Below, in pieces: positions 4,014 through 61,779 of a stretch of 64,000 bases of DNA. The notes below the pieces were generated by a model that worked only from the letters and a program-made list of their open reading frames with translations, searched no databases and was not told the DNA's origin. This DNA is from Candidatus Omnitrophota bacterium (GTDB taxonomy: Bacteria; Omnitrophota; Gorgyraeia; Duberdicusellales; 4484-171): NCBI GenBank assembly GCA_041652815.1, contig JBAZGN010000005.1:8615-72614 (forward strand), in the 5' to 3' direction. The translations under genes were made by a program, and so were the position numbers. The stretch's first letter is position 1; the number at the start of each line of letters is the position of its first letter.

Positions 4014-4175
4014 AAGGCCTACTATGCTTGGGCCTAAAGATATGGACATCCTCAACCACTAAGCTCTGAAAGGATTATATAAATTTTGGTTTGAAAATAA
4101 CGGACAAAATGGCCTCCTTCGACGCGCTCGCTCCGCTCGCTTGCTCAGGATTTCGCTTGATAGTAGATTAATCCC

Positions 4176-4355
4176 TTTTCCTGGATTCCACGGATATAAT
4201 CCGTGGAAAAAATAGTAAGGGGCGTCGTCCCATCGGGCACTAGCCCACTGTCTTCGACATGGACGTCGTTGGGCTCCAGGGTGTTCAAAATTTTGCGAGC
4301 CTGCCTGCCGGTAGCCCAACAGGCTGAAAGCCTGGTGGACAGGCAGGGAAATACT
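4176..4355 (+). ncRNA. Unclassified GC-rich structured RNA-like element, copy 1, paralogous to 44346-44557
   Basis: About 60% GC island in a 40% GC genome. It contains a CCACGG-N7-CCGTGG hairpin, a GGGCGTCGTCCC...GGGC-ACTA-GCCC segment, a conserved GGGCTCCAG about 64 nt after the hairpin, and pseudoknot-capable complementarity GCCTGCCTGCC / GGACAGGCAGG. The second copy has the same ordered landmarks. The overlapping track ORFs on both strands have no RBS and no consistent frame. Confidence 0.35.
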
Positions 4356-4401
4356 TCTCTAAAACCCAAATATCTTGCCATATTGCCTATATAATTCTTC
4401 T
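4356..4401 (+). repeat. 45-nt conserved motif TCTCTAAAACCCAAATATCTTG(C/T)CATA...CTATATAATTCTTCT, copy 1
   Basis: Near-identical to 44294-44347. In this copy the -35/-10 spacer is shortened to 9 nt, so it is probably not a functional promoter. Confidence 0.6.
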
Positions 4402-7139: not shown

Positions 7140-7272
7140 CGCGAATTCACGTTAATTGAATGCGAAGATACGCAAACAAATTCAATTCGCGATAATTCGC
7201 GTTTCCGCCAGAGGCGGATCCGCCCACATATGAAAAACGTCAGTGGCGGAAGATTCGCGATCATTCGCGTTA
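7140..7272. repeat. Nested-palindrome intergenic element, copy 1 (core TTCCGCCAGAGGCGGATCCGCCCACATAT...GTGGCGGAA)
   Basis: Outer inverted repeat TTCCGCCA/TGGCGGAA encloses a perfect 12-bp palindrome GGCGGATCCGCC. Flanks contain reiterated ATTCGCG/CGCGAAT units with AACGCGAAT...ATTCGCGTT termini. A second copy of the core lies at 11880-11960. Confidence 0.6.
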
Positions 7273-11763: not shown

Positions 11764-11981
11764 TAGCTAATGAATAAAACTCTAAACCCTAAACTCGAAA
11801 CTCTAAACAAACTCGAAATCACAATGTTCCAAATCCTAAACGTTTCGAGTTTGGGATTTCGAGTTTGTAGTTTGTTTAGGATTTTCCGCCAGAGGCCCTC
11901 GGCTTCGCCGAGAGGCGAGCGGATCCGCCCACATATAAAAAATATATCGGTGGCGGAAGTGTTTAGAGTTTTAGGGTTTAA
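11764..11981. repeat. Compound palindromic repeat region containing copy 2 of the TTCCGCCAGAGGC...GGATCCGCCCACATAT...GTGGCGGAA core
   Basis: Terminal inverted repeats AAAACTCTAAACCCTAAA / TTTAGGGTTTAGAGTTTT-like. Internal AACTCGAAAC/GTTTCGAGTT reiterations. The core is near-identical to 7201-7250 with a 24-nt internal duplication. Both track ORFs here, 11757..12089(-) and 11770..11994(+), are spurious. Confidence 0.6.
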
Positions 11982-11983
11982 AT

Positions 11984-14900: not shown

Positions 14901-16513
14901 ATAAAGTAAGCCCGATAATCGCCCGAATCAGGTATACAACCCCCGGCGTTACTTTAATATCTCCGCCGCCGCATCATGATATATATTCTATTGAGGACCT
15001 TGCACAATTAATATTTGATTTAAAAAATGTTAATCCTCGCGCCCGCGTAAGCGTAAAGCTTGTATCAGAAGTAGGAGTAGGAACTGTTGCCGCAGGCGTT
15101 GCCAAAGGGCATGCGGATATGATTCTTATTTCCGGCGGAGACGGCGGCACCGGCGCATCTCCTCAGAGCTCAATAAGATATGCAGGGCTTCCGTGGGAGC
15201 TTGGCGTTAGCGAGACGCATCAAACACTCCTGCTGAATAATTTACGTTCAAGAGTGCGCATACAAACTGATGGGCAGATGCGAACCGGCCGCGATGTGGC
15301 AATAGCCGCTTTGTTAGGAGCGGAAGAATTTGGTTTTTGTTCGAGCGTGCTTGTTGTAAGCGGCTGCGTTATGCTTAGGCATTGCCAGCTTAATAATTGT
15401 TCAGTTGGCATAGCTACGCAAGATGAGGCTTTACAGAAACGCTTTGGAGGAAAACCTGAATATATAGTGAACTATTTTAATTTCATAACACAGGAACTAC
15501 GCGAAATTATGGCAAGTTTAGGCATAAGGACTATAAACGAAATGATTGGCCGCGCAGATCTTATTGAAGTAAATAAAGAGATTATTCCTTCCAAAGCGCG
15601 CGGAGTAAATTATTCCAAAATCCTTTATGTGCCGGAATTACCTCGAGATTATGCAAGATATTGTAAAGTAAAACAGGAAAGCGGGCTTGATTTTGTTTTA
15701 GACAAAGAACTTATAAAAATGTGTGGTGTTTTTAAAGAGAATGAGCCAATAAAAATTTCAGTTAAGATTAATAATACCAACAGAACTGCAGGTGCAATGC
15801 TTAGCGGAGAGTTAATCCGGCGCTATGGAGAAGCGGGGTTGCCCCATGATTCTATAGTTTGTAAATTTAAAGGCATTGCCGGCCAAAGTTTTGGCGCTTT
15901 TCTGGCGAAAGGAATTACTTTTGAATTAGAAGGTATGGCTAATGATTATGTTGGCAAAGGAATTTCCGGAGGAAAAATTATTATTTATCCAGATAAACAG
16001 ACAGGATATAAGGCCGAAGAAAATATTATTATTGGAAATACCGCGTTTTATGGTGCTATCGCTGGTGAAGCTTATATTGGAGGTGTTGCCGGCGAACGGT
16101 TTTGTATACGAAACTCAGGCCTTAAGGCAGTAGTTGAAGGCGTGGGGGATCATGGTTGCGAGTATATGACCGGCGGGTATGTCGCTATAATCGGTAAGAC
16201 CGGCCGTAATTTTGCCGCAGGTATGAGCGGCGGCATTGCGTATGTATATAATGCAGGAAAAGATTTTAATCAGAAATGTAATTTAGAAATGGTGGAGTTG
16301 GAAATTCTTTCCCAGAATGATGAAAAAGTACTTTACGATTTACTCTGTAACCATCATAAATACACTCAAAGCGCAATTGCTAAGAAAATTATTGAGCATT
16401 TTAAAAAAGAAATTAAACATTTTGTCAAAGTTATGCCAACAGAATATAAACGTATTTTAGCAGGGAAAAAAGCGATAAAGAAACCGGATTTGGTTGAGGT
16501 GTCAGATGGGTGA
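11984..16513 (+). CDS. gltB: Glutamate synthase large subunit
   Basis: 1509 aa. N-terminal amidotransferase domain with CGVGF, central domain, FMN domain (GEGGEDP, KQVASGRFGV), C-terminal GXGXG repeats. Confidence 0.95.
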   Translation: MKYKHFPGQQGLYYPEYEHDSCGVGFVCNIKGQKSNAIVRQGIEVLRRLSHRGAVGSDPKTGDGAGILIQIPHEFFKKSAQAIKINLPELGFYGTGLIFLPKDIKEREFCKKTFEKIIKDEGQIFLGWRSVPIDNSDIGKGAKASEPVFEQVFIERNKDVSGELDFERKLYVIRKQVENIIRSSELQQKKSFYITNISTRTFSYKGLLMPGQLENFFVDLKDESIESSLCLVHSRYSTNTFPTWDLAQPFRFLAHNGEINTLRGNINGVRARERLISSEIFGADIEKLKPVIVEGGSDSAAIDNLFELLVLSGRPLEHTMMMLIPAAWEHDKFMDCELKDFYKYHACFMEPWDGPAAMAFTDGKNIAAALDRNGLRPARYIITKNDFVVMASEVGVLDIAPKDIKISGRLEPGKLFFIDTQAGCIVDDSQIKKRVSGNCPYGKWNTENMVDLDSLVGGSTGNKKPADIIACLKAFGYSREDLKIVIRPMAEEGKEPVGSMGNDTPHAFLSKKPQLLYSYFKQLFAQVTNPAIDSIREKLVMSLESFIGPEKNILEETPKHSHKLKVRNPILTNEELIKIRDISINNFRTKTIYTFFDAVNPKEGFVRALERICFEAEYAIDKGYSFIILSDRGIDKDRIALPALLAMSAVHHYLVRKTIRSQVAIIVESAEPREVHHFALLFGYGADCINPYLAYETIEYLISEKEINLDRKNALKNYNKALTDGILKILSKMGISTLRSYRGAQIFEALGLDDELIEKYFTGTVSRIAGVGLPGIAQETIERHKEAFAQRGVVSPYLTSGGIYQWKRDGEFHLWNPETIAALQDATRNNDYDKYKEFARMINNQSDNPVTLRSLLKFKKEKPIPIDEVEPVQSIMRRFTTGAMSFGSISALAHETIAIAMNRIGGKSNTGEGGEDPDRFTALPNGDSKRSAVKQVASGRFGVTTNYLVNADEIQIKIAQGAKPGEGGQLPGHKVSPIIARIRYTTPGVTLISPPPHHDIYSIEDLAQLIFDLKNVNPRARVSVKLVSEVGVGTVAAGVAKGHADMILISGGDGGTGASPQSSIRYAGLPWELGVSETHQTLLLNNLRSRVRIQTDGQMRTGRDVAIAALLGAEEFGFCSSVLVVSGCVMLRHCQLNNCSVGIATQDEALQKRFGGKPEYIVNYFNFITQELREIMASLGIRTINEMIGRADLIEVNKEIIPSKARGVNYSKILYVPELPRDYARYCKVKQESGLDFVLDKELIKMCGVFKENEPIKISVKINNTNRTAGAMLSGELIRRYGEAGLPHDSIVCKFKGIAGQSFGAFLAKGITFELEGMANDYVGKGISGGKIIIYPDKQTGYKAEENIIIGNTAFYGAIAGEAYIGGVAGERFCIRNSGLKAVVEGVGDHGCEYMTGGYVAIIGKTGRNFAAGMSGGIAYVYNAGKDFNQKCNLEMVELEILSQNDEKVLYDLLCNHHKYTQSAIAKKIIEHFKKEIKHFVKVMPTEYKRILAGKKAIKKPDLVEVSDG

Positions 16514-16600
16514 GCGTTACACGTAACAAGTATCACGTAACACGTTTAAAAAAAGACGCGATACTTGTTACATGATACGTGTTACTTAATAAAGGAAAAG
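16514..16600. repeat. Palindromic GTAAC/CACGT-rich element (member of the GTATCACGTAAC-termini family) between gltB and gltD
   Basis: GTTACACGTAAC, GTAACAAGTATC...GATACTTGTTAC inverted pair, GTATCACGTAACACG. It shares terminal motifs with the elements at 23552-23662 and 50333-50461. Confidence 0.6.
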
Positions 16601-18064
16601 ATGGGTGATGTAAAAGGTTTTCTAAAAGTTAGGCGCCAAACAGCGAAATACAGGCCGGTTTGCGTGCGCGTAAAAGACTACCGTGAAGTGGCAATGCCGC
16701 GCTCTGATGAGGCTATGAAAGAGCAGGCATCGCGTTGTATGGACTGCGGAACTCCTTTTTGCCATTGGGGTTGCCCTCTGGGAAATTATATTCCCGAGTG
16801 GAATGACGCAGTTTTTCGCGGCCGATGGAAGAAAGCCTTTCAATTGCTTGAGGCAAGCAATAATTTTCCCGAATTTACCGGAAGGCTTTGCCCCGCGCTT
16901 TGTGAGTATGCTTGTATTTTGGGAATAAATGATGACCCGGTAACTATAAAAGAGAATGAATTGACGATTATTGAATATGCTTTTGATGCTGGTTTTATCC
17001 GGGCAAATCCGCCTAAAGTTCGTACCGGAAAAAAAATTGCTGTTATCGGTTCCGGCCCGTCCGGGCTTGCTTGCGCCAACCAGTTGAATAAAGCTGGGCA
17101 TAAGATAACGGTTTTTGAAAAGGATGACAAAATAGGAGGTATTTTACGCTACGGTATCCCGGATTTTAAACTTGAAAAGTGGCTCATTGACCGGCGGGTT
17201 AACCTGCTTGAGAAAGAGGGTATTGAATTTAAAACCAATGTGAATGCCGGCATAGGCTATAAAGCCTCAAAACTTAAAAAAGAATTTGATGCCATTGTGC
17301 TTACCGCTGGTTCCCGTGTTCCCCGTGACCTTAATATTGAAGGCCGAAAGCTCAACGGTATATATTTCGCTATGGATTATTTAATCCAGTCAAACAGAAG
17401 AGTTGCCAAAGAAAAAATACCCGTTAATAAGTTAATCGATGCCAAAGGAAAAAAAGTTGTTGTTATCGGCGGAGGAGATACCGGCGCTGATTGTGTCGGC
17501 ACGGCGAACCGGCAAGGCGCAAGCTGTGTGGTGCAAATTGAAATTATGCCAAAGCCTGAAGAATGCCGTACCAAAGAATACCCGTGGCCAAAATACCCGT
17601 TGATTTTAAGAACTTCTACTAGCCACGAAGAAGGAAGCGAGCGCCAGTGGAGCATTCTTACTAAAAAATTTATCGGTGAGAATGGTAAACTTGAGAAATT
17701 ATCTTGTGTCCGTGCCGAATTTATAAACGAACAACGAACAGCGAACGACAAACGGCAAGCTTGTCCGGTAATGCGCGAAATCCCTGGTTCTGAATTCGAG
17801 ATTAGCGCCGATATGGTCTTGCTGGCAATGGGTTTTGTGCATCCCGAACATTCAAAACTGCTTACAGATTTAGGCGTAGAACTGGATAAACGCGGCAATA
17901 TAAAAACAGATGCAAATTATATGACTTCCAATGAGAAAGTATTTTCTGCAGGAGACGCCAGAAGCGGCCAGTCATTAATTGTACGGGCTATTGCAGAAGG
18001 CAGGCAGGCTGCTTTCTGTGTTGATAAATATCTTATGGGCGAAAGTAGTTTGTCTATTATATAA
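16601..18064 (+). CDS. gltD: Glutamate synthase small subunit (NADPH)
   Basis: Fe-S cluster cysteines CMDCGTPFC and CPLGN; FAD/NAD Rossmann motifs GSGPSGLACA and VIGGGDTGADC. I moved the start to the ATG at 16601 (RBS aaaggaaaag). The track start lies inside the repeat. Confidence 0.9.
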   Translation: MGDVKGFLKVRRQTAKYRPVCVRVKDYREVAMPRSDEAMKEQASRCMDCGTPFCHWGCPLGNYIPEWNDAVFRGRWKKAFQLLEASNNFPEFTGRLCPALCEYACILGINDDPVTIKENELTIIEYAFDAGFIRANPPKVRTGKKIAVIGSGPSGLACANQLNKAGHKITVFEKDDKIGGILRYGIPDFKLEKWLIDRRVNLLEKEGIEFKTNVNAGIGYKASKLKKEFDAIVLTAGSRVPRDLNIEGRKLNGIYFAMDYLIQSNRRVAKEKIPVNKLIDAKGKKVVVIGGGDTGADCVGTANRQGASCVVQIEIMPKPEECRTKEYPWPKYPLILRTSTSHEEGSERQWSILTKKFIGENGKLEKLSCVRAEFINEQRTANDKRQACPVMREIPGSEFEISADMVLLAMGFVHPEHSKLLTDLGVELDKRGNIKTDANYMTSNEKVFSAGDARSGQSLIVRAIAEGRQAAFCVDKYLMGESSLSII

Positions 18065-18225
18065 GATTTGGTAACGGTTAAGGTAACCTATCATTATTAT
18101 TTTAGGTTACGCGCCTGCCGTAGGCAGGCAGGTTACCTAGGTTACACTAAATCACGAGTTTTTTGATGTAACCTTCGTAACCTACCCGTAACCTACGTAA
18201 CATATAGGCAGAAATAGCTGTTAAA
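18065..18225. repeat. GTAACC/GGTTAC heptamer array with central GC hairpin
   Basis: GGTAACGGTTAAGGTAACC; AGGTTAC-GCGCCTGCCGTAGGCAGGC-AGGTTAC; GTAACCTTC-GTAACCTACCC-GTAACCTAC-GTAAC at roughly 9-11 bp phasing, directly upstream of the 857-aa gene. Confidence 0.5.
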
Positions 18226-22465: not shown

Positions 22466-23551
22466 ATGCAAGCATTACTTGTTTTAGAGGACGGCACAAC
22501 ATTTCGGGGTAAGTCCTTTGGCGCAACCGGCATACGTTTCGGAGAAGTGGTTTTTAACACTAGTATGTCCGGATATCAGGAGATAATTACTGACCCTTCC
22601 TATAAAGGGCAGATTGTTGTAATGACTTACCCTTTAATTGGCAATTACGGCACAAATGACGAAGACGTTGAATCGGCAAAGCCGTATCTGGGAGGTTTTG
22701 TGGTTAAGGAATACAGTAAACTCTTCAGCAACTGGCAGGCCAAAGAATCTCTGGGGGATTATTTTAAAAGAAATAATATTTTAGGCATTGAGGGAATTGA
22801 TACCCGTGCCCTTACTTTGCATATCCGCCACTCCGGCGCTATGAAAGCAGTGCTGGCAACCGGCAATGTAAATGAAAAAGAGTTAATCCAAAAAGCGAAA
22901 AATTCACCGGGATTAGTCGGCATAGATTTAGTTAAGGAAGTTACCTGCGATAAAAAGTATCTTTGGAAAAAAGCCAAGGACAGTAAATATAAGGTAGTCG
23001 TGCTTGATTGCGGAACAAAATATAATATTTTAAGAAACCTTGTAAAAAACAAATGTGAGGTTATAGTTGTGCCGGCAAATACCCAAGCGGATGAAATTTT
23101 AGGTTTAAAGCCGGATGGCGTATTGCTTTCTAACGGCCCCGGAGACCCGGTAGCAGTCAAATATGTGATAGAGGCTACCAGAAAGCTAATCGGGAAAGTA
23201 CCTCTATTTGGCATTTGTTTGGGCCAGCAGATTTTAGGCCTGGCGTTCGGCGGGAAAACTTACAAACTTAAATTCGGCCATCACGGAGCTAACCAGCCGG
23301 TTAAAGATTTACGAACAGGAAGAGTTTTAATTACCGTGCAGAATCACGGGTTTTCCGTCGATATAAAATCCCTGAATAAAAAAGATATTGAAATAACTCA
23401 TATAAATTTAAATGACCAGACGCTGGAAGGCATCCGGCACAAAAAATTACCGATATTTTCCGTGCAATTTCATCCTGAAGCAAGCGCCGGACCGCATGAC
23501 GCTCAATATCTATTTGGAGAATTTGTTCAGATGATGAATAAATATAAGTAA
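22466..23551 (+). CDS. carA: Carbamoyl-phosphate synthase small subunit
   Basis: 361 aa. LxLEDGTxFxGxSFG N-terminus; GATase triad GICLGQQ...QFHPE. Confidence 0.95.
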   Translation: MQALLVLEDGTTFRGKSFGATGIRFGEVVFNTSMSGYQEIITDPSYKGQIVVMTYPLIGNYGTNDEDVESAKPYLGGFVVKEYSKLFSNWQAKESLGDYFKRNNILGIEGIDTRALTLHIRHSGAMKAVLATGNVNEKELIQKAKNSPGLVGIDLVKEVTCDKKYLWKKAKDSKYKVVVLDCGTKYNILRNLVKNKCEVIVVPANTQADEILGLKPDGVLLSNGPGDPVAVKYVIEATRKLIGKVPLFGICLGQQILGLAFGGKTYKLKFGHHGANQPVKDLRTGRVLITVQNHGFSVDIKSLNKKDIEITHINLNDQTLEGIRHKKLPIFSVQFHPEASAGPHDAQYLFGEFVQMMNKYK

Positions 23552-23662
23552 CACGTATTACGTAGCACGTTCATAAAATATTTCTTTGACGTGTTACCTC
23601 TACTTCAAGCGGACTCGCCTGAATATTTTTTATATTGTGGCGAGGTTACGTGATACCTGATA
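23552..23662. repeat. MITE/REP-like element with GTATCACGTAAC-type termini between carA and carB (inverted relative to the 50333-50461 copy)
   Basis: The reverse complement of 23589-23652 aligns at about 80% with 50345-50410. Shared core: CCTCGCCAC(A/C)ATATAAAAATATT(C/T)AGGCGAGTCC...GAGGTA(A/G)CACGTC. Confidence 0.6.
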
Positions 23663-23671
23663 CGCAATATT

Positions 23672-26924: not shown

Positions 26925-27055
26925 TTAATCTAAATTCCACCGCCGCGGTGGGCTTTAGGTTTCTATCGAGCAGCTTACATTTTATTTGCTTACATTGAAT
27001 CCCCGTATTAAAATACTTTTAATCTAAATCCCACCTACGCGGTGGGTTATGGTTT
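26925..27055 (+). repeat. Pair of 37-nt direct repeats, each with a CCACC..GGTGG hairpin (26925-26962 and 27019-27055)
   Basis: TTAATCTAAATTCCACCGCCGCGGTGGGCTTTAGGTTT versus TTAATCTAAATCCCACCTACGCGGTGGGTTATGGTTT. CTTACATT x2 lies between them. They are upstream of phoB. Confidence 0.55.
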
Positions 27056-29570: not shown

Positions 29571-29640
29571 TATTTTACCCACATTTAACCACTTCTTTAG
29601 ACGCATTTAATACCACAATTGTATACTTTGTTTAACCGTG
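29571..29640 (+). promoter_or_regulatory. Cluster of phased TTT(T/A)ACC heptamer direct repeats (Pho-box-like), copy A
   Basis: TTTTACC (29574), TTTAACC (29584), TTTAATACC (29606), TTTAACC (29631), at roughly 10-11 bp or multiples. This fits tandem binding of an OmpR/PhoB-family dimer. It sits between phoR and the porin-pst operon. Confidence 0.4.
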
Positions 29641-29782: not shown

Positions 29783-29971
29783 ATGTGTCCGTGTATAAGT
29801 TCAAAAAGTAAATATGCGATATGCTTAAGAAATGCATCCGAATTAATGGTTCCTTCTGTTTCAGAAAGGGTTAATTATTGTTTTGGCGTATACGAACTTT
29901 GCCCATTTTTTGGCTTTAAAGAACTAAACGATGTAACCATCATTAATGGCTTGCATGAAGGGGCTATGTGA
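29783..29971 (+). CDS. Small Cys-rich protein, 62 aa
   Basis: Strong RBS caaggaggtgaaacATG. MCPCISSKSKYAICL... with 6 Cys. It follows Pho-box-like cluster A. Confidence 0.35.
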   Translation: MCPCISSKSKYAICLRNASELMVPSVSERVNYCFGVYELCPFFGFKELNDVTIINGLHEGAM

Positions 29972-30035
29972 TTTTACCCATATTTAACATTACCTTAAGG
30001 CTATCTTAACACCCGTATTTTATACTTTAATTGGA
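29968..30035 (+). promoter_or_regulatory. Pho-box-like heptamer repeat cluster, copy B (paralogous to 29571-29640)
   Basis: ATTTTACCCATATTTAAC... aligns with copy A (ATTTTACCCACATTTAAC...). It is followed by TTAACACC and TATACTTTAAT. Confidence 0.4.
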
Positions 30036-36352: not shown

Positions 36353-36512
36353 GATATAACTATAAACTTTCCACTGAAATCTACTTGCCCGAAGTTTATC
36401 AAACAATCAAAGAGCTAATCTGGGTGATATTCTGATTTTACATAGATTTTACATAGATTTTACACTCACCTAACATACCTATCATAAAATACTTTATTAA
36501 AAGGAGGCAAAC

Positions 36513-37367
36513 ATGTTTAAGAGATGGTTATTTATTTTAGGAATAATTACTTTTGCAAACCCGCTATTCGCCGCGTCAAATAAAAATTCTATCCAAATCA
36601 AAGGTTCAGATACCATGGTCAATTTAGGCCAGGCGTGGGCTGAAAAGTACATGGAGAAAAATACCGCTGAATTTGTAGCAGTCACCGGCGGCGGTTCAGG
36701 CACTGGGCTTTCCAGTTTAATCAGCGCTACCTGCGATATTGCGATGAGTTCAAGAAATATCAAAGATAAAGAAATTTCCTTAGCTAAACAAAAAGGAATA
36801 AATCCTTACGAGATAAAAGTAGCTTTGGATGGTTTAGCCGTAGTGGTTAACCCCAAAAATCCTGTGAGCAAATTGACTATTGACCAGCTTGCTCAGATTT
36901 TTACCGGGAAGATTACTAATTGGAAGGAACTTGGCGGGCAAGATATGAAAATTGTTATTCTTTCGCGTGAGGTCAACTCAGGAACGCACGTTTATTTTAA
37001 AGAGCATGTGTTAAGAAGAGGCGACCCAAACGCGAAAGATGAATTTGCTCCGACTGCACTATTACTTTCTTCTTCTCAGGCAATCGCAGACGAGGTAGCG
37101 GGTAACTCTGCAGCAATAGGATATTACGGGATGGGATATATTTCGGCTAAACAAAAGCCCATTATGGTAGCTAAAGATGAGAAGGCTGCGTATGAAACAC
37201 CATCCATAGAAAATGTGGTTAATGGTAAGTATCCAATATCTCGGCCGCTATTCCTTTATACGAACGGAGAGCCAAAGGAGTTGGTAAAGAAATTTGTAGA
37301 TTTTTGTCTTTCCAAGGAAGGGCAAGATATTGTTCTAAAAACTGATTTTGTTCCCGTAAGCAAATAA
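36513..37367 (+). CDS. pstS: Phosphate ABC substrate-binding protein, second system
   Basis: GSDTMVNLGQAWAEKY, TGGGSGTGLSS, SSRNIKD, YPISRPLFLYTNG. Confidence 0.9.
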   Translation: MFKRWLFILGIITFANPLFAASNKNSIQIKGSDTMVNLGQAWAEKYMEKNTAEFVAVTGGGSGTGLSSLISATCDIAMSSRNIKDKEISLAKQKGINPYEIKVALDGLAVVVNPKNPVSKLTIDQLAQIFTGKITNWKELGGQDMKIVILSREVNSGTHVYFKEHVLRRGDPNAKDEFAPTALLLSSSQAIADEVAGNSAAIGYYGMGYISAKQKPIMVAKDEKAAYETPSIENVVNGKYPISRPLFLYTNGEPKELVKKFVDFCLSKEGQDIVLKTDFVPVSK

Positions 37368-44210: not shown

Positions 44211-44293
44211 ATGCAATCTTAACTTCCACTTAAACCGTAAATGGAGAAGCCGTCCCTTTGTAGATTATTTCTGCCATTCGATGTTGGAATGCC

Positions 44294-44347
44294 TCTCTAA
44301 AACCCAAATATCTTGTCATAACGCTACATCGTCTATATAATTCTTCT
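44294..44347 (+). promoter_or_regulatory. Conserved motif copy 2, containing a consensus sigma-70 promoter (TTGTCA-17-TATAAT)
   Basis: TTGTCA at 44313-44318 and TATAAT at 44336-44341 with a 17-nt spacer. Near-identical to 4356-4401 apart from spacer length. The predicted TSS is about 44346-44348, at the start of the GC-rich element. Confidence 0.5.
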
Positions 44348-44557
44348 CTCCCATTGCCAGAGGCCACGGACTACGCCCGTGGACGAATGGTGGAGCGGGA
44401 CGCCGCCCCACTGGGACGTATTTAGAGAACAGGGACCATGGGTATGCCAATGGGGCTCCAGTATAAATAGGGAGGGGTTTTCCCTCGGTCGATGCGAGTG
44501 GGATCTCAATATTATGCCTTTCAACGTGCGAGGCAGAGAGATAATAGCGCCGGTTTT
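44346..44557 (+). ncRNA. Unclassified GC-rich structured RNA-like element, copy 2 (paralog of 4176-4355), with its own promoter
   Basis: Same ordered landmarks as copy 1: CCACGG-N7-CCGTGG hairpin, GGGACGCCGCCCCACTGGGA, and GGGGCTCCAG about 70 nt downstream of the hairpin. A second consensus promoter (44611-44639) follows, so this is probably an independent transcript. The overlapping track ORFs lack RBSs. Confidence 0.35.
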
Positions 44558-44610
44558 TAAATATGATCAGTACTATTTTTATGCCCAAGTATAGAAAAAT
44601 GAACTAAAAA

Positions 44611-50128: not shown

Positions 50129-50280
50129 ATATTTAATAATACGGTAATATCCGGCAGCATCATTTAGGTGCTTATATTTGGGGGAAGGTATAGTATCCTG
50201 ATTGGAAAAATCAATCAGGATTTTTGTTTTTAGATAGGTAAAGAGATTAATTGACACAATAAAAAAATATGCTAAGCTGT

Positions 50281-50298
50281 TATGAACATATGTTCATA
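50281..50298. promoter_or_regulatory. Perfect 18-bp palindrome TATGAACATATGTTCATA (candidate operator)
   Basis: Self-complementary. Lies about 190 nt upstream of the first gene of the arsenic cluster. Confidence 0.4.
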
Positions 50299-50332
50299 AC
50301 AAACGTTACCTATATCTTATCTTTTGAAATAT

Positions 50333-50461
50333 GTATCACATAACACGTATCCTCGCCACCATATAAAAATATTTAGGCGAGTCCACTTGGAGTGGAGGTA
50401 GCACGTCACGTAATCATTAGAGGATGAAAAAACATAATACCTGTTGCCTGCGACGTGATAC
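50333..50461. repeat. MITE/REP-like element with inverted termini GTATCAC(A/G)TAACACG ... CGACGTGATAC
   Basis: The core 50345-50410 is about 80% identical to the reverse complement of 23589-23652. Contains hairpins CTCGCC-loop-GGCGAG and CCACT-TGG-AGTGG. Confidence 0.55.
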
Positions 50462-50489
50462 TTAACCAATATGAGGTATATTAAAATTT

Positions 50490-61692: not shown

Positions 61693-61779
61693 ATATTTAA
61701 AAGCTATCAGCTGTCAGCCTTCTGCTCTCAGCTGAAAGCTGAAGACTGAAAGCTGATGGCTTTTCGAAAGGAGATAAAT

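Follow-up and report, generated by a model that had tools for sequence, protein, structure and literature searches.

The stretch analysed here, 64,000 nt of contig JBAZGN010000005.1 from a Candidatus Omnitrophota bacterium (the window), contains three copies of a palindromic repeat family with GTATCAC and GTAACAC heptamers: copy A between gltB and gltD, copy B between carA and carB, and copy C in the 5' leader of a DUF134/ars cluster. We propose, with a probability of roughly 65%, that these loci are self-complementary mobile non-coding elements, similar to MITEs (miniature inverted-repeat transposable elements), which were inserted at gene overlaps and are tolerated as passengers rather than serving as sites for a regulator. 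Judged from their sequences, the elements are discrete insertions, and the gltB/gltD and carA/carB pairs ancestrally overlapped by 8 nt. A 10-bp target duplication marks two independent events involving elements with unrelated arms, namely copy A and an insert in the relative L100, and stop/start overlaps have been occupied recurrently, with turnover of the sequence at a fixed position. The family also belongs to a broad class of heptamer palindromes in transcribed spacers of this Candidatus Omnitrophota clade.

Insertion into ancestral gene overlaps

The relatives used for comparison are Omnitrophota loci, labelled here by L-numbers; the best GltD matches in GTDB species representatives come from Candidatus Omnitrophota metagenome-assembled genomes and have 66% and 63% identity. 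For CarA, beyond an identical protein (NCBI label Candidatus Omnitrophica), the next most similar sequence is only 82% identical. The gltB and gltD genes overlap by 8 nt in five relatives (L003, L004, L085, L096 and L097). At this ancestral-type junction (…GAGGTnTCnGATGGGTGAT…) the ATG of gltD and the TGA of gltB share ATGGGTGA, and L003, L004, L085 and L097 have a single GATGGGTGA at the overlap. The window junction reads …GAGGTGTC-AGATGGGTGA-(85 nt)-AGATGGGTGA-TGTAAAAGG, with AGATGGGTGA at 16504-16513 and 16599-16608 as an exact (10/10) target duplication around copy A. On the plus strand, the left duplicate holds the gltB stop TGA (16511-16513) and the now-unused ancestral gltD ATG, and the right duplicate holds the working gltD start ATG (16601). 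Because the 10-bp duplication spans the gltB/gltD overlap, both the upstream stop and the downstream start were kept. The first-pass annotation had placed copies A and B exactly in intercistronic spacers; the location inside transcription units stands, but the spacer itself was made by insertion into the 8-nt overlap. Thus, copy A created the gltB|gltD spacer rather than occupying an existing one.

The gltB|gltD junction of L083 has a decayed duplication (GATGGCTAA versus TATGGGTGA) around an insert that is not alignable with that of the window. The perfect duplication in the window, the decayed one in L083 and the unalignable inserts point to separate events, and we rejected a single ancient insertion common to both genomes. 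A third case is found at the other end of gltB, where the HTH_8 gene overlaps gltB by 4 nt in L097 and lies 220 nt from it in the window.

The carA and carB genes overlap by 8 nt (ATGCCTAA) in four relatives (L085, L096, L097 and L101). This junction is filled in the window and in five relatives with differing heptamers: palindromic repeats separate the genes by 98-170 nt in the window, L083, L087 and L095, and the separation is about 75 nt in L004 and 61 nt in L100. The L100 insert consists of nine heptamers only (GCTTTCA GCCTTCA GCTTTCA GCCTTCA, four times GCTGACA, then GCTGA), and this 61-nt GCTTTCA/GCTGACA palindrome is flanked by AATATGCCTA and AATATGCCCA, a 10-bp overlap duplication of which 9/10 positions are identical. 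In a CarA neighbour-joining tree L004 forms the outgroup, L100 is placed beside an empty genome, and the window, L083, L087 and L095 cluster with a bootstrap value of 78.5%. Filled genomes therefore stand in at least three places of the tree, which indicates that carA|carB was filled at least three times. The first-pass annotation had suggested that copy positions in related strains would tell mobile from fixed elements, and both filled and empty orthologous sites were found, at gltB|gltD as well as at carA|carB.

We also considered whether the window insert at carA|carB is homologous to its counterparts in L083, L087 and L095 and rejected this, since it does not align with them; these three have GTGAGCGAAGCGA in common. 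This motif lies directly upstream of the carB ATG in L083 (11218-11242), L087 (4990-5014) and L095 (5478-5501), is absent from the window and contains GCGAAGC, an unusually stable DNA mini-hairpin. The L087 and L095 elements share one end and differ in the array nested within. At the neighbouring pyrG|carA junction, heptamer palindromes that partly run into the 3' end of pyrG were seen in L083 (9938-10002), L087 (3711-3752) and L100 (3502-3571); the window has a plain 18-nt spacer there.

Layout and predicted folding of the three copies

The three repeat loci of the first-pass annotation (16514-16600, 23552-23662 in inverted orientation and 50333-50461) and their terminal motifs were confirmed. 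Allowing up to two mismatches, GTATCACGTAAC matches the window 13 times versus 2.3 ± 1.5 times in shuffled sequences, with none of 100 shuffles reaching 13, and ten of the 13 matches fall within the three loci. The two-unit pattern GTWWCACGTWWCAC has 15 matches versus 2.0 expected. All copies share the ends 5'-(GC/AT)GTWWCAC … ACGTGWTAC-TTAW-3' with arms of GTWWCAC heptamers; these ends place copies A and C in plus and copy B in minus orientation, in agreement with how the core is oriented. Terminal inverted repeats (5'-GTATCAC… / …GTGATAC-3') are present in 3/3 copies, and the arms pair over 20-28 bp. The family members found, three in 64 kb, are 85-135 nt long and contain no open reading frame (ORF). 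Since the window sequence is identical in two independent ENA assemblies from different samples, the repeats are not an assembly artefact.

Copy A (16514-16598, plus strand), the 85-nt insertion at gltB|gltD, is a pure hairpin without a core. Its left arm GTTACAC GTAACAA GTATCAC GTAACAC (16516-16543) is followed by an A-rich loop of 14 nt (16544-16557), a right arm of four inverted heptamers, GCGATAC TTGTTAC ATGATAC GTGTTAC (16558-16585), and a 13-nt tail TTAATAAAGGAAA (16586-16598), which supplies a Shine-Dalgarno-like AAGGA for gltD. That the heptamers are excision footprints of the local target was rejected, the arm sequence being unrelated to the duplicated target. Copy B (23548-23665, minus strand) lies in the carA|carB spacer. 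It has the heptamers GTAACAC GTATTAC GTAGCAC (23548-23568), an inner GTGTTAC (23591-23597) and GTTAC GTGATAC CTGATAC (23645-23663), and its conserved end (reverse complement GTGTTAC-TTA) provides the carA stop codon TAA (23549-23551). Inserted inside its heptamer arm is a core, here called type 2 (23597-23645, minus strand), that reads CCTCGCCAC-A-ATATAAAAAATATT-C-AGGCGAG, then TCCGCTTGAAGTAGA, then GG. In copy C (50333-50467, plus strand) the order is GTATCAC ATAACAC GTATC, a type-2 core (50351-50398, plus strand; CCTCGCC-ACCATATAAAAATATTTA-GGCGAG, then TCCACT-TGG-AGTGGA, then GG), GTAGCAC GTCAC, a loop, GTGATAC (50455-50461) and the tail TTAACC. The type-2 core is a module of about 48 nt with two adjacent hairpins, within a conserved block of about 65 nt. 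A core of this length had been noted before in two copies and is indeed common to B and C: no inverted repeat in the window is longer than the one formed by these two copies (44 nt, 89% identity), and alignment extends it to about 65 nt. The expected Pfam families confirmed the flanking genes as gltB, gltD, carA and carB, and likewise the ars operon downstream of the third copy as a DUF134-ArsP-methyltransferase-…-ACR3-ArsC cluster. Upstream of copy C, TTGACA (50252) is followed by a perfect 22-bp palindrome GTTATGAACATATGTTCATAAC (50279-50300); the DUF134/ars cluster probably has its promoter and operator here.

The first-pass annotation had considered binding of a dimeric regulator at CACGT/GTAAC half-sites. 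The units are indeed short, repeated and symmetric, contain ACGT and occur at three operons, and an array of ACGT-containing heptamers could offer half-sites to a dimeric or multimeric regulator of nitrogen, pyrimidine and arsenic genes. However, co-transcribed genes flank two of the three sites, which have no promoter-like sequence, and the leader of the ars cluster already possesses the separate palindrome beside the promoter-like TTGACA. Orthologous junctions of the relatives carry unrelated heptamers (CACGAAT, CACAGAT, GAAAAGC, GCTGACA) or nothing, the element occurs in both orientations, the enzyme operons of about half of the relatives work without it, and many other heptamer sequences in the same genome share the architecture. 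The comparative data thus largely refute such an operator array, which we consider very improbable.

The copies have the 7-nt periodicity expected from heptamer arms (lag-7 autocorrelation z = 5.7 for A, 2.3 for B and 2.2 for C) and fold more stably as RNA than shuffled sequences, at −28.4 kcal/mol (z −3.1) for A, −38.1 (z −4.2) for B and −38.8 (z −2.1) for C. As single-stranded DNA, copy A folds on either strand (z −3.2 and −5.8). A promoter and terminator scan found no terminator-like or promoter-like site in 16514-16600 or 23552-23671, and no terminator-like site, by the criterion of a GC-rich stem with a T-run, was found within copy C. Rfam 15 gave no match at the gathering threshold in the whole window, and no tRNA matches the elements.

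These folds would suit a cis-regulatory RNA under selection, whose hairpins set the ratio of large to small subunit through processing by a double-strand RNase, stabilisation of 3' ends or controlled re-initiation. The elements occupy precisely the gaps between subunit genes as well as a 5' leader, strong stems are predicted, with their base at the stop codon and the ribosome-binding region free, and at carA|carB the hairpin potential is kept in six genomes despite complete turnover of the sequence. Nevertheless, we regard selection for such a function as quite unlikely: copy B is inverted relative to A and C, at a given site, genomes show no conservation of sequence or of the covariation type, the ancestral 8-nt overlap persists for these enzymes in about half of the relatives, a terminator signature is missing, and the wider class also has members behind terminal genes, within leaders and even inside coding DNA. 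An influence on mRNA stability or an uncoupling of the subunits, as the first-pass annotation had suggested, is still plausible due to the 20-28-bp duplex that the element is predicted to form.

A wider class of heptamer palindromes and nested hairpins

The three-copy family described in the first-pass annotation is a real repeat family, but it is not isolated; it is one family of a much larger class. About eight spacers of the window and many in the relatives contain inverted arrays of tandem 7-nt (or 7+3-nt) units, whose sequence differs by locus and genome and within which small GC-rich hairpins are often nested. On the plus strand of the window, the amt|glnK spacer (7140-7269) has ATTCGCG/CGCGAAT units with a period of about 10 nt, the spacer between the HTH_8 gene and gltB (11770-11983) has AAACTCT/AAACCCT heptamers with inverted copies, the region downstream of gltD (18065-18205) has the hairpin GCGCCTGCCGTAGGCAGGC surrounded by direct and inverted GGTAACC/GTAACCT repeats, and 61699-61764 is a pure heptamer palindrome (GCTATCA GCTGTCA GCCTTCT GCTCTCA / GCTGAAA GCTGAAG ACTGAAA GCTGATG). 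The family of this last palindrome, named here after GCTGAAA, also occurs on both sides of carA in L100 (pyrG|carA and carA|carB). The GTATCAC family was seen only in the window's organism among 99 loci; heptamers in the relatives are CACGAAT at both junctions of L083, CACAGAT and GATAGAA in L087 and L095, GAAAAGC in L004, AATCAAA in L003, TCTAATT and GATGCTA in L087, and CTAAACG and GCGTATA in L091 and L093. A telomerase-like origin, considered for TTTAGGG-like units upstream of gltB, was rejected; the units differ at every locus.

Periodicity was assessed per spacer, the pooled intergenic autocorrelation giving only a weak lag-7 signal. At lag 7 (lag 10 for 7+3-nt units) z values are 3-7, up to 7.4, and ordinary spacers have no such signal. 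Tandem Repeats Finder detects the stronger heptamer arrays; a strict tandem-array detector and an exact-6-mer cluster detector miss imperfect ones. The other class spacers fold with z between −3.4 and −7.7 against shuffles, and including copies A-C every tested spacer lies between −2.1 and −7.7. A simple scan found 5.7 lag-7 arrays per 100 kb among Omnitrophota loci (244 kb in total), compared with 1.0 per 100 kb among loci of other phyla obtained by the same search (1.34 Mb). Heptamer arrays were also seen inside coding DNA, at the same gltD position in the window (17717-17760; AACGAAC three times) and in L083 (5225-5272; a different unit), where they coincide with a loop expansion of 6-9 amino acids that other relatives lack.

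The spacers could instead have grown in place, each of them home-grown by polymerase slippage that yields short heptamer arrays, as it does in other bacteria rich in heptamers, and subsequent formation of the palindrome through intrastrand template switching at a hairpin. Such growth would fit the observation that the common feature of the spacers is a 7-nt (or 7+3-nt) periodicity and not a sequence, the occurrence of heptamer arrays also in coding DNA at lineage-specific loop expansions, and the common end with a differing nested array in the L087 and L095 carA|carB elements. It is further favoured by the work of Mrazek 2007, which, as cited in PMC4679880 and PMC4692102, found heptanucleotide repeats to be the most abundant class of long simple repeats in most genomes analysed and proposed slippage as their origin, and by Xanthomonas, where heptamer arrays occupy the same intergenic positions with length and sequence varying between close relatives (PMC4692102). 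However, slippage cannot account for unrelated sequence newly placed between two target copies, and the gltB|gltD insert is unlike its target yet bounded by an exact 10-bp duplication, as is similarly found in L100. The heptamers and ends of the GTATCAC family recur at three unlinked loci of the window, the core recurs too, and the GCTGAAA family is found at different loci in two genomes. Growth in place is therefore unlikely in our view, and we prefer insertion.

Cores of 48-52 nt sit inside the heptamer arrays, between direct copies of the heptamer. A second kind, the type-1 core, consists of TTTCCGCC-AGA-GGCGGA followed by TCCGCCCAC-(A/T-rich loop)-GTGGCGGAAG, and has the loop motif CAC(C)ATATAAAAA(A)TAT in common with the type-2 core. 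It occurs in the window at amt|glnK (7202-7252; TTTCCGCC-AGA-GGCGGA, then TCCGCCCAC-ATATGAAAAACGTCA-GTGGCGGAAG) and between the HTH_8 gene and gltB (11882-11959), as well as on three contigs of one Joint Genome Institute (JGI) metagenome (L088, L091 and L093); a variant with matched stem changes (CCCGCC/GGCGGG) lies in the L083 carA|carB element. Five of the six copies are nearly identical, and the local heptamer flanks each of the six as direct copies. An exact-pattern scan for the type-1 core gave three true matches in JGI metagenomes, together with four chance matches in high-GC contigs, and none in IMG/VR.

Smaller hairpins seem to behave as insertions too. In the window, the type-1 core upstream of gltB carries, within its small loop, a nested 24-nt hairpin CCTCGGCTTCGCCGAGAGGCGAGC (about 11897-11920) that is absent from the otherwise identical copy of L093 (3537-3600), which has the same AAACTCT heptamers around it. 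In L083 (GCA_030692055.1), an 81-nt cluster of GC-hairpins with TCCGCC…GGCGGA ends lies in frame in gltB (1956-2036), where it adds 27 amino acids (SAEGGSLPVRQAGASCAKGASASGGGG) at a linker without alignment gaps among the window, L097, L003 and L004.

Further features were seen elsewhere in the window. Two GC-rich, hairpin-dense non-coding regions (4068-4400 and 44259-44560) share a 33-nt block with 91% identity (4350-4382 and 44288-44320), and the latter also has TTGTCA-17-TATAAT; they have no credible Rfam match, and Rfam at an E-value threshold likewise gave none on two structured regions other than the elements. The phosphate-transport region contains 2.8 copies of GATTTTACATA with a period of 11 nt at 36434-36464, about 50 nt upstream of ORF 36513-37367, a spacing that looks like a Pho box. 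Between carB and a response-regulator gene, a 37-nt hairpin (TTAATCTAAAT-CCACC..GGTGG-TTTAGGTT) occurs twice with 81% identity (26925-26961 and 27019-27055), and a 58-nt direct repeat with 71% identity, rich in TTTAAC/TTTACC, lies at 29572-29629 and 29971-30028 upstream of small ORFs, in an 840-nt gap before a Porin_5 gene. The window's genes, roughly 50 in number, all lie on the plus strand, and the GC skew is positive in every 2-kb interval of 1-64000; this strand bias is unusually strong for a 64-kb stretch.

Proposed mechanism, known repeat classes and significance

We hypothesize that the elements integrate in the manner of MITEs, through a staggered cut of about 10 bp by a trans-acting enzyme. 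About three registers of a 10-bp duplication would span an 8-nt overlap, and insertions would survive only where they are harmless, which would be sufficient to explain the bias towards junctions. In the mRNA, the insert is predicted to fold as one long stem-loop, whose base includes or abuts the upstream stop codon and which ends 8-19 nt before the downstream AUG, so that the ribosome-binding region would stay free. Because the whole insert would fold into one stem-loop it should do little harm, and as it contains neither a terminator nor a promoter the operon would stay co-transcribed. After insertion the arms may diversify by heptamer slippage and hairpin-templated correction, as exemplified by CACAGAT, CACGAAT and CACGTAT at carA|carB of related genomes and by the nested arrays that distinguish L087 from L095. 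Direct translational coupling between stop and start was likely lost or weakened, and a 20-28-bp RNA duplex was likely created, which a double-strand-specific RNase could cut; both would be side effects and not the reason for the element.

Several observations weigh against the proposed insertion of MITE-like passengers. Only one of the three copies (A) has a clean target duplication. At copies B and C the flanks have no more than AATAT in common, with AAATAT on the left and AATATT or AATATG on the right (23540-23552 and 23664-23671 for B, 50326-50332 and 50468-50473 for C); this may reflect a duplication of 5-6 bp, a preference for AT-rich targets or chance. With two clean cases, a fixed 10-bp stagger is indistinguishable from survival of any duplication of at least 8 bp. 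Only three family copies were seen in 64 kb, and an exact-pattern scan for the type-2 core found none in GTDB representatives, JGI metagenome contigs and IMG/VR, from which the window's genome is evidently absent. No transposase or other mobilising gene was found among the window ORFs or beside any copy, in a check that covered the window ORF list and the gene and Pfam tables of the annotated loci (L088, L091 and L093 are unannotated). The recurrent filling of carA|carB is read from a single-gene tree in which the filled clade has the modest support of 78.5%. Furthermore, arm sequences that are unrelated between families are hard to reconcile with one sequence-specific transposase. Alternatively, the integrating enzyme may recognise the hairpin and not a sequence, since the families share architecture and not sequence. 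In the boldest version, Omnitrophota would carry a hitherto undescribed kind of mobile hairpin whose identity lies in structure and not in sequence: a single enzyme that recognises hairpins or cruciforms and cuts with a 10-bp stagger could integrate every palindrome of tandem heptamers. The elements would repeatedly colonise 8-nt stop/start overlaps in essential operons, because the insert would fold away in the mRNA and hold the terminating ribosome close to the start downstream, a structural bypass by which translational coupling is preserved. We regard this version as tentative and unlikely.

Bacterial MITEs are reviewed in PMC3184786 and include Nezha of Anabaena/Nostoc and Chunjie of Geobacter, the latter with 9-bp flanking direct repeats. 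The first-pass description of the repeats as MITE- or REP-like, the second term meaning repetitive extragenic palindromic, holds in its first half. As in MITEs, the elements are small, non-coding and, with three copies in 64 kb, apparently multi-copy, with terminal inverted repeats and very stable predicted folds, have filled and empty sites, and lie in intergenic or transcribed DNA; flanking direct repeats (10 bp here, 9 bp in Chunjie) are clear at copy A. In contrast to MITEs, the arms are tandem heptamer arrays instead of a unique terminal inverted repeat derived from an insertion sequence, families with unrelated arms share one architecture, no parent insertion sequence is known, and a clean duplication was found at one copy of the GTATCAC family only. 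Copy C gave no BLASTN match against plasmids and phages.

The second half of the description does not hold. REP and REPIN sequences, which are mobilised by RAYT (a Y1 transposase), are imperfect palindromes of 20-40 nt whose 5' tetranucleotide is conserved, and they lack a target duplication (PMC3116915). The class described here shares with them extragenic palindromes in operons, mRNA hairpins and a selfish but tolerated character, yet its members are too long at 60-220 nt, have heptamer periodicity and a 10-bp duplication, and lack the conserved tetranucleotide; no RAYT gene was seen in the window or the annotated loci. The Rickettsia palindromic elements, as the review PMC3184786 summarises Ogata 2000, are 105-146 bp long, with conserved family sequences, and lie mostly inside ORFs. 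Set against this summary, the elements are alike as palindromic selfish DNA tolerated where insertion is normally lethal, and a related GC-hairpin module lies in frame in gltB of L083; they differ in that the GTATCAC family was seen only between ORFs and that a stop/start overlap is duplicated instead of being read through in frame.

The closest parallels in periodicity are the STRR heptanucleotide repeats of cyanobacteria, reportedly described by Mazel in 1990, and the small dispersed repeats (SDR) of Nostoc, which are said to have been described by Elhai in 2008. SDR are hairpins 21-27 nt long that insert into heptamer arrays and into one another. The hairpin modules of 24-50 nt found here appear to resemble them in their nesting, both within heptamer arrays and within each other. 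TAACTGA repeats (PMC4679880) and GGGNATC repeats (PMC4692102) are related heptamer repeats, and the heptanucleotide repeats of cyanobacteria, Xanthomonas and Beggiatoaceae are conserved in position and variable in sequence and length (PMC4679880, PMC4692102). The class described here likewise has tandem heptamers in intergenic and transcribed DNA, with position kept and sequence and length variable. Its head-to-tail 7-nt units are those of STRR and of long simple-sequence repeats, but it does not form simple direct arrays without an inverted partner or boundaries. It further differs from STRR and SDR in that it belongs to another phylum, that short arrays of 3-5 imperfect units form inverted pairs and thereby one long hairpin, that the whole palindrome is apparently the inserted unit with a 10-bp duplication, and that no single heptamer dominates. 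In the literature searched we met no account of palindromes with heptamer arms in Omnitrophota, nor of repeats of any other class there.

In conclusion, the elements would provide a clean natural example of selfish DNA that invades compact genomes with overlapping genes: a duplication spanning the overlap regenerates stop and start, an insert predicted to fold on itself keeps the operon working, and the same two junctions appear to have been hit independently in several lineages. The class joins tandem heptamer repeats and MITE-like palindromes, which are usually treated apart, in a phylum without a cultured model. The elements may serve as markers for strain typing, and they call for caution with gene callers and with the prediction of operons and ribosome-binding sites in metagenome-assembled genomes of Omnitrophota. 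If it is true that the mobilising activity recognises structure and not sequence, this would be a new mechanism of integration.

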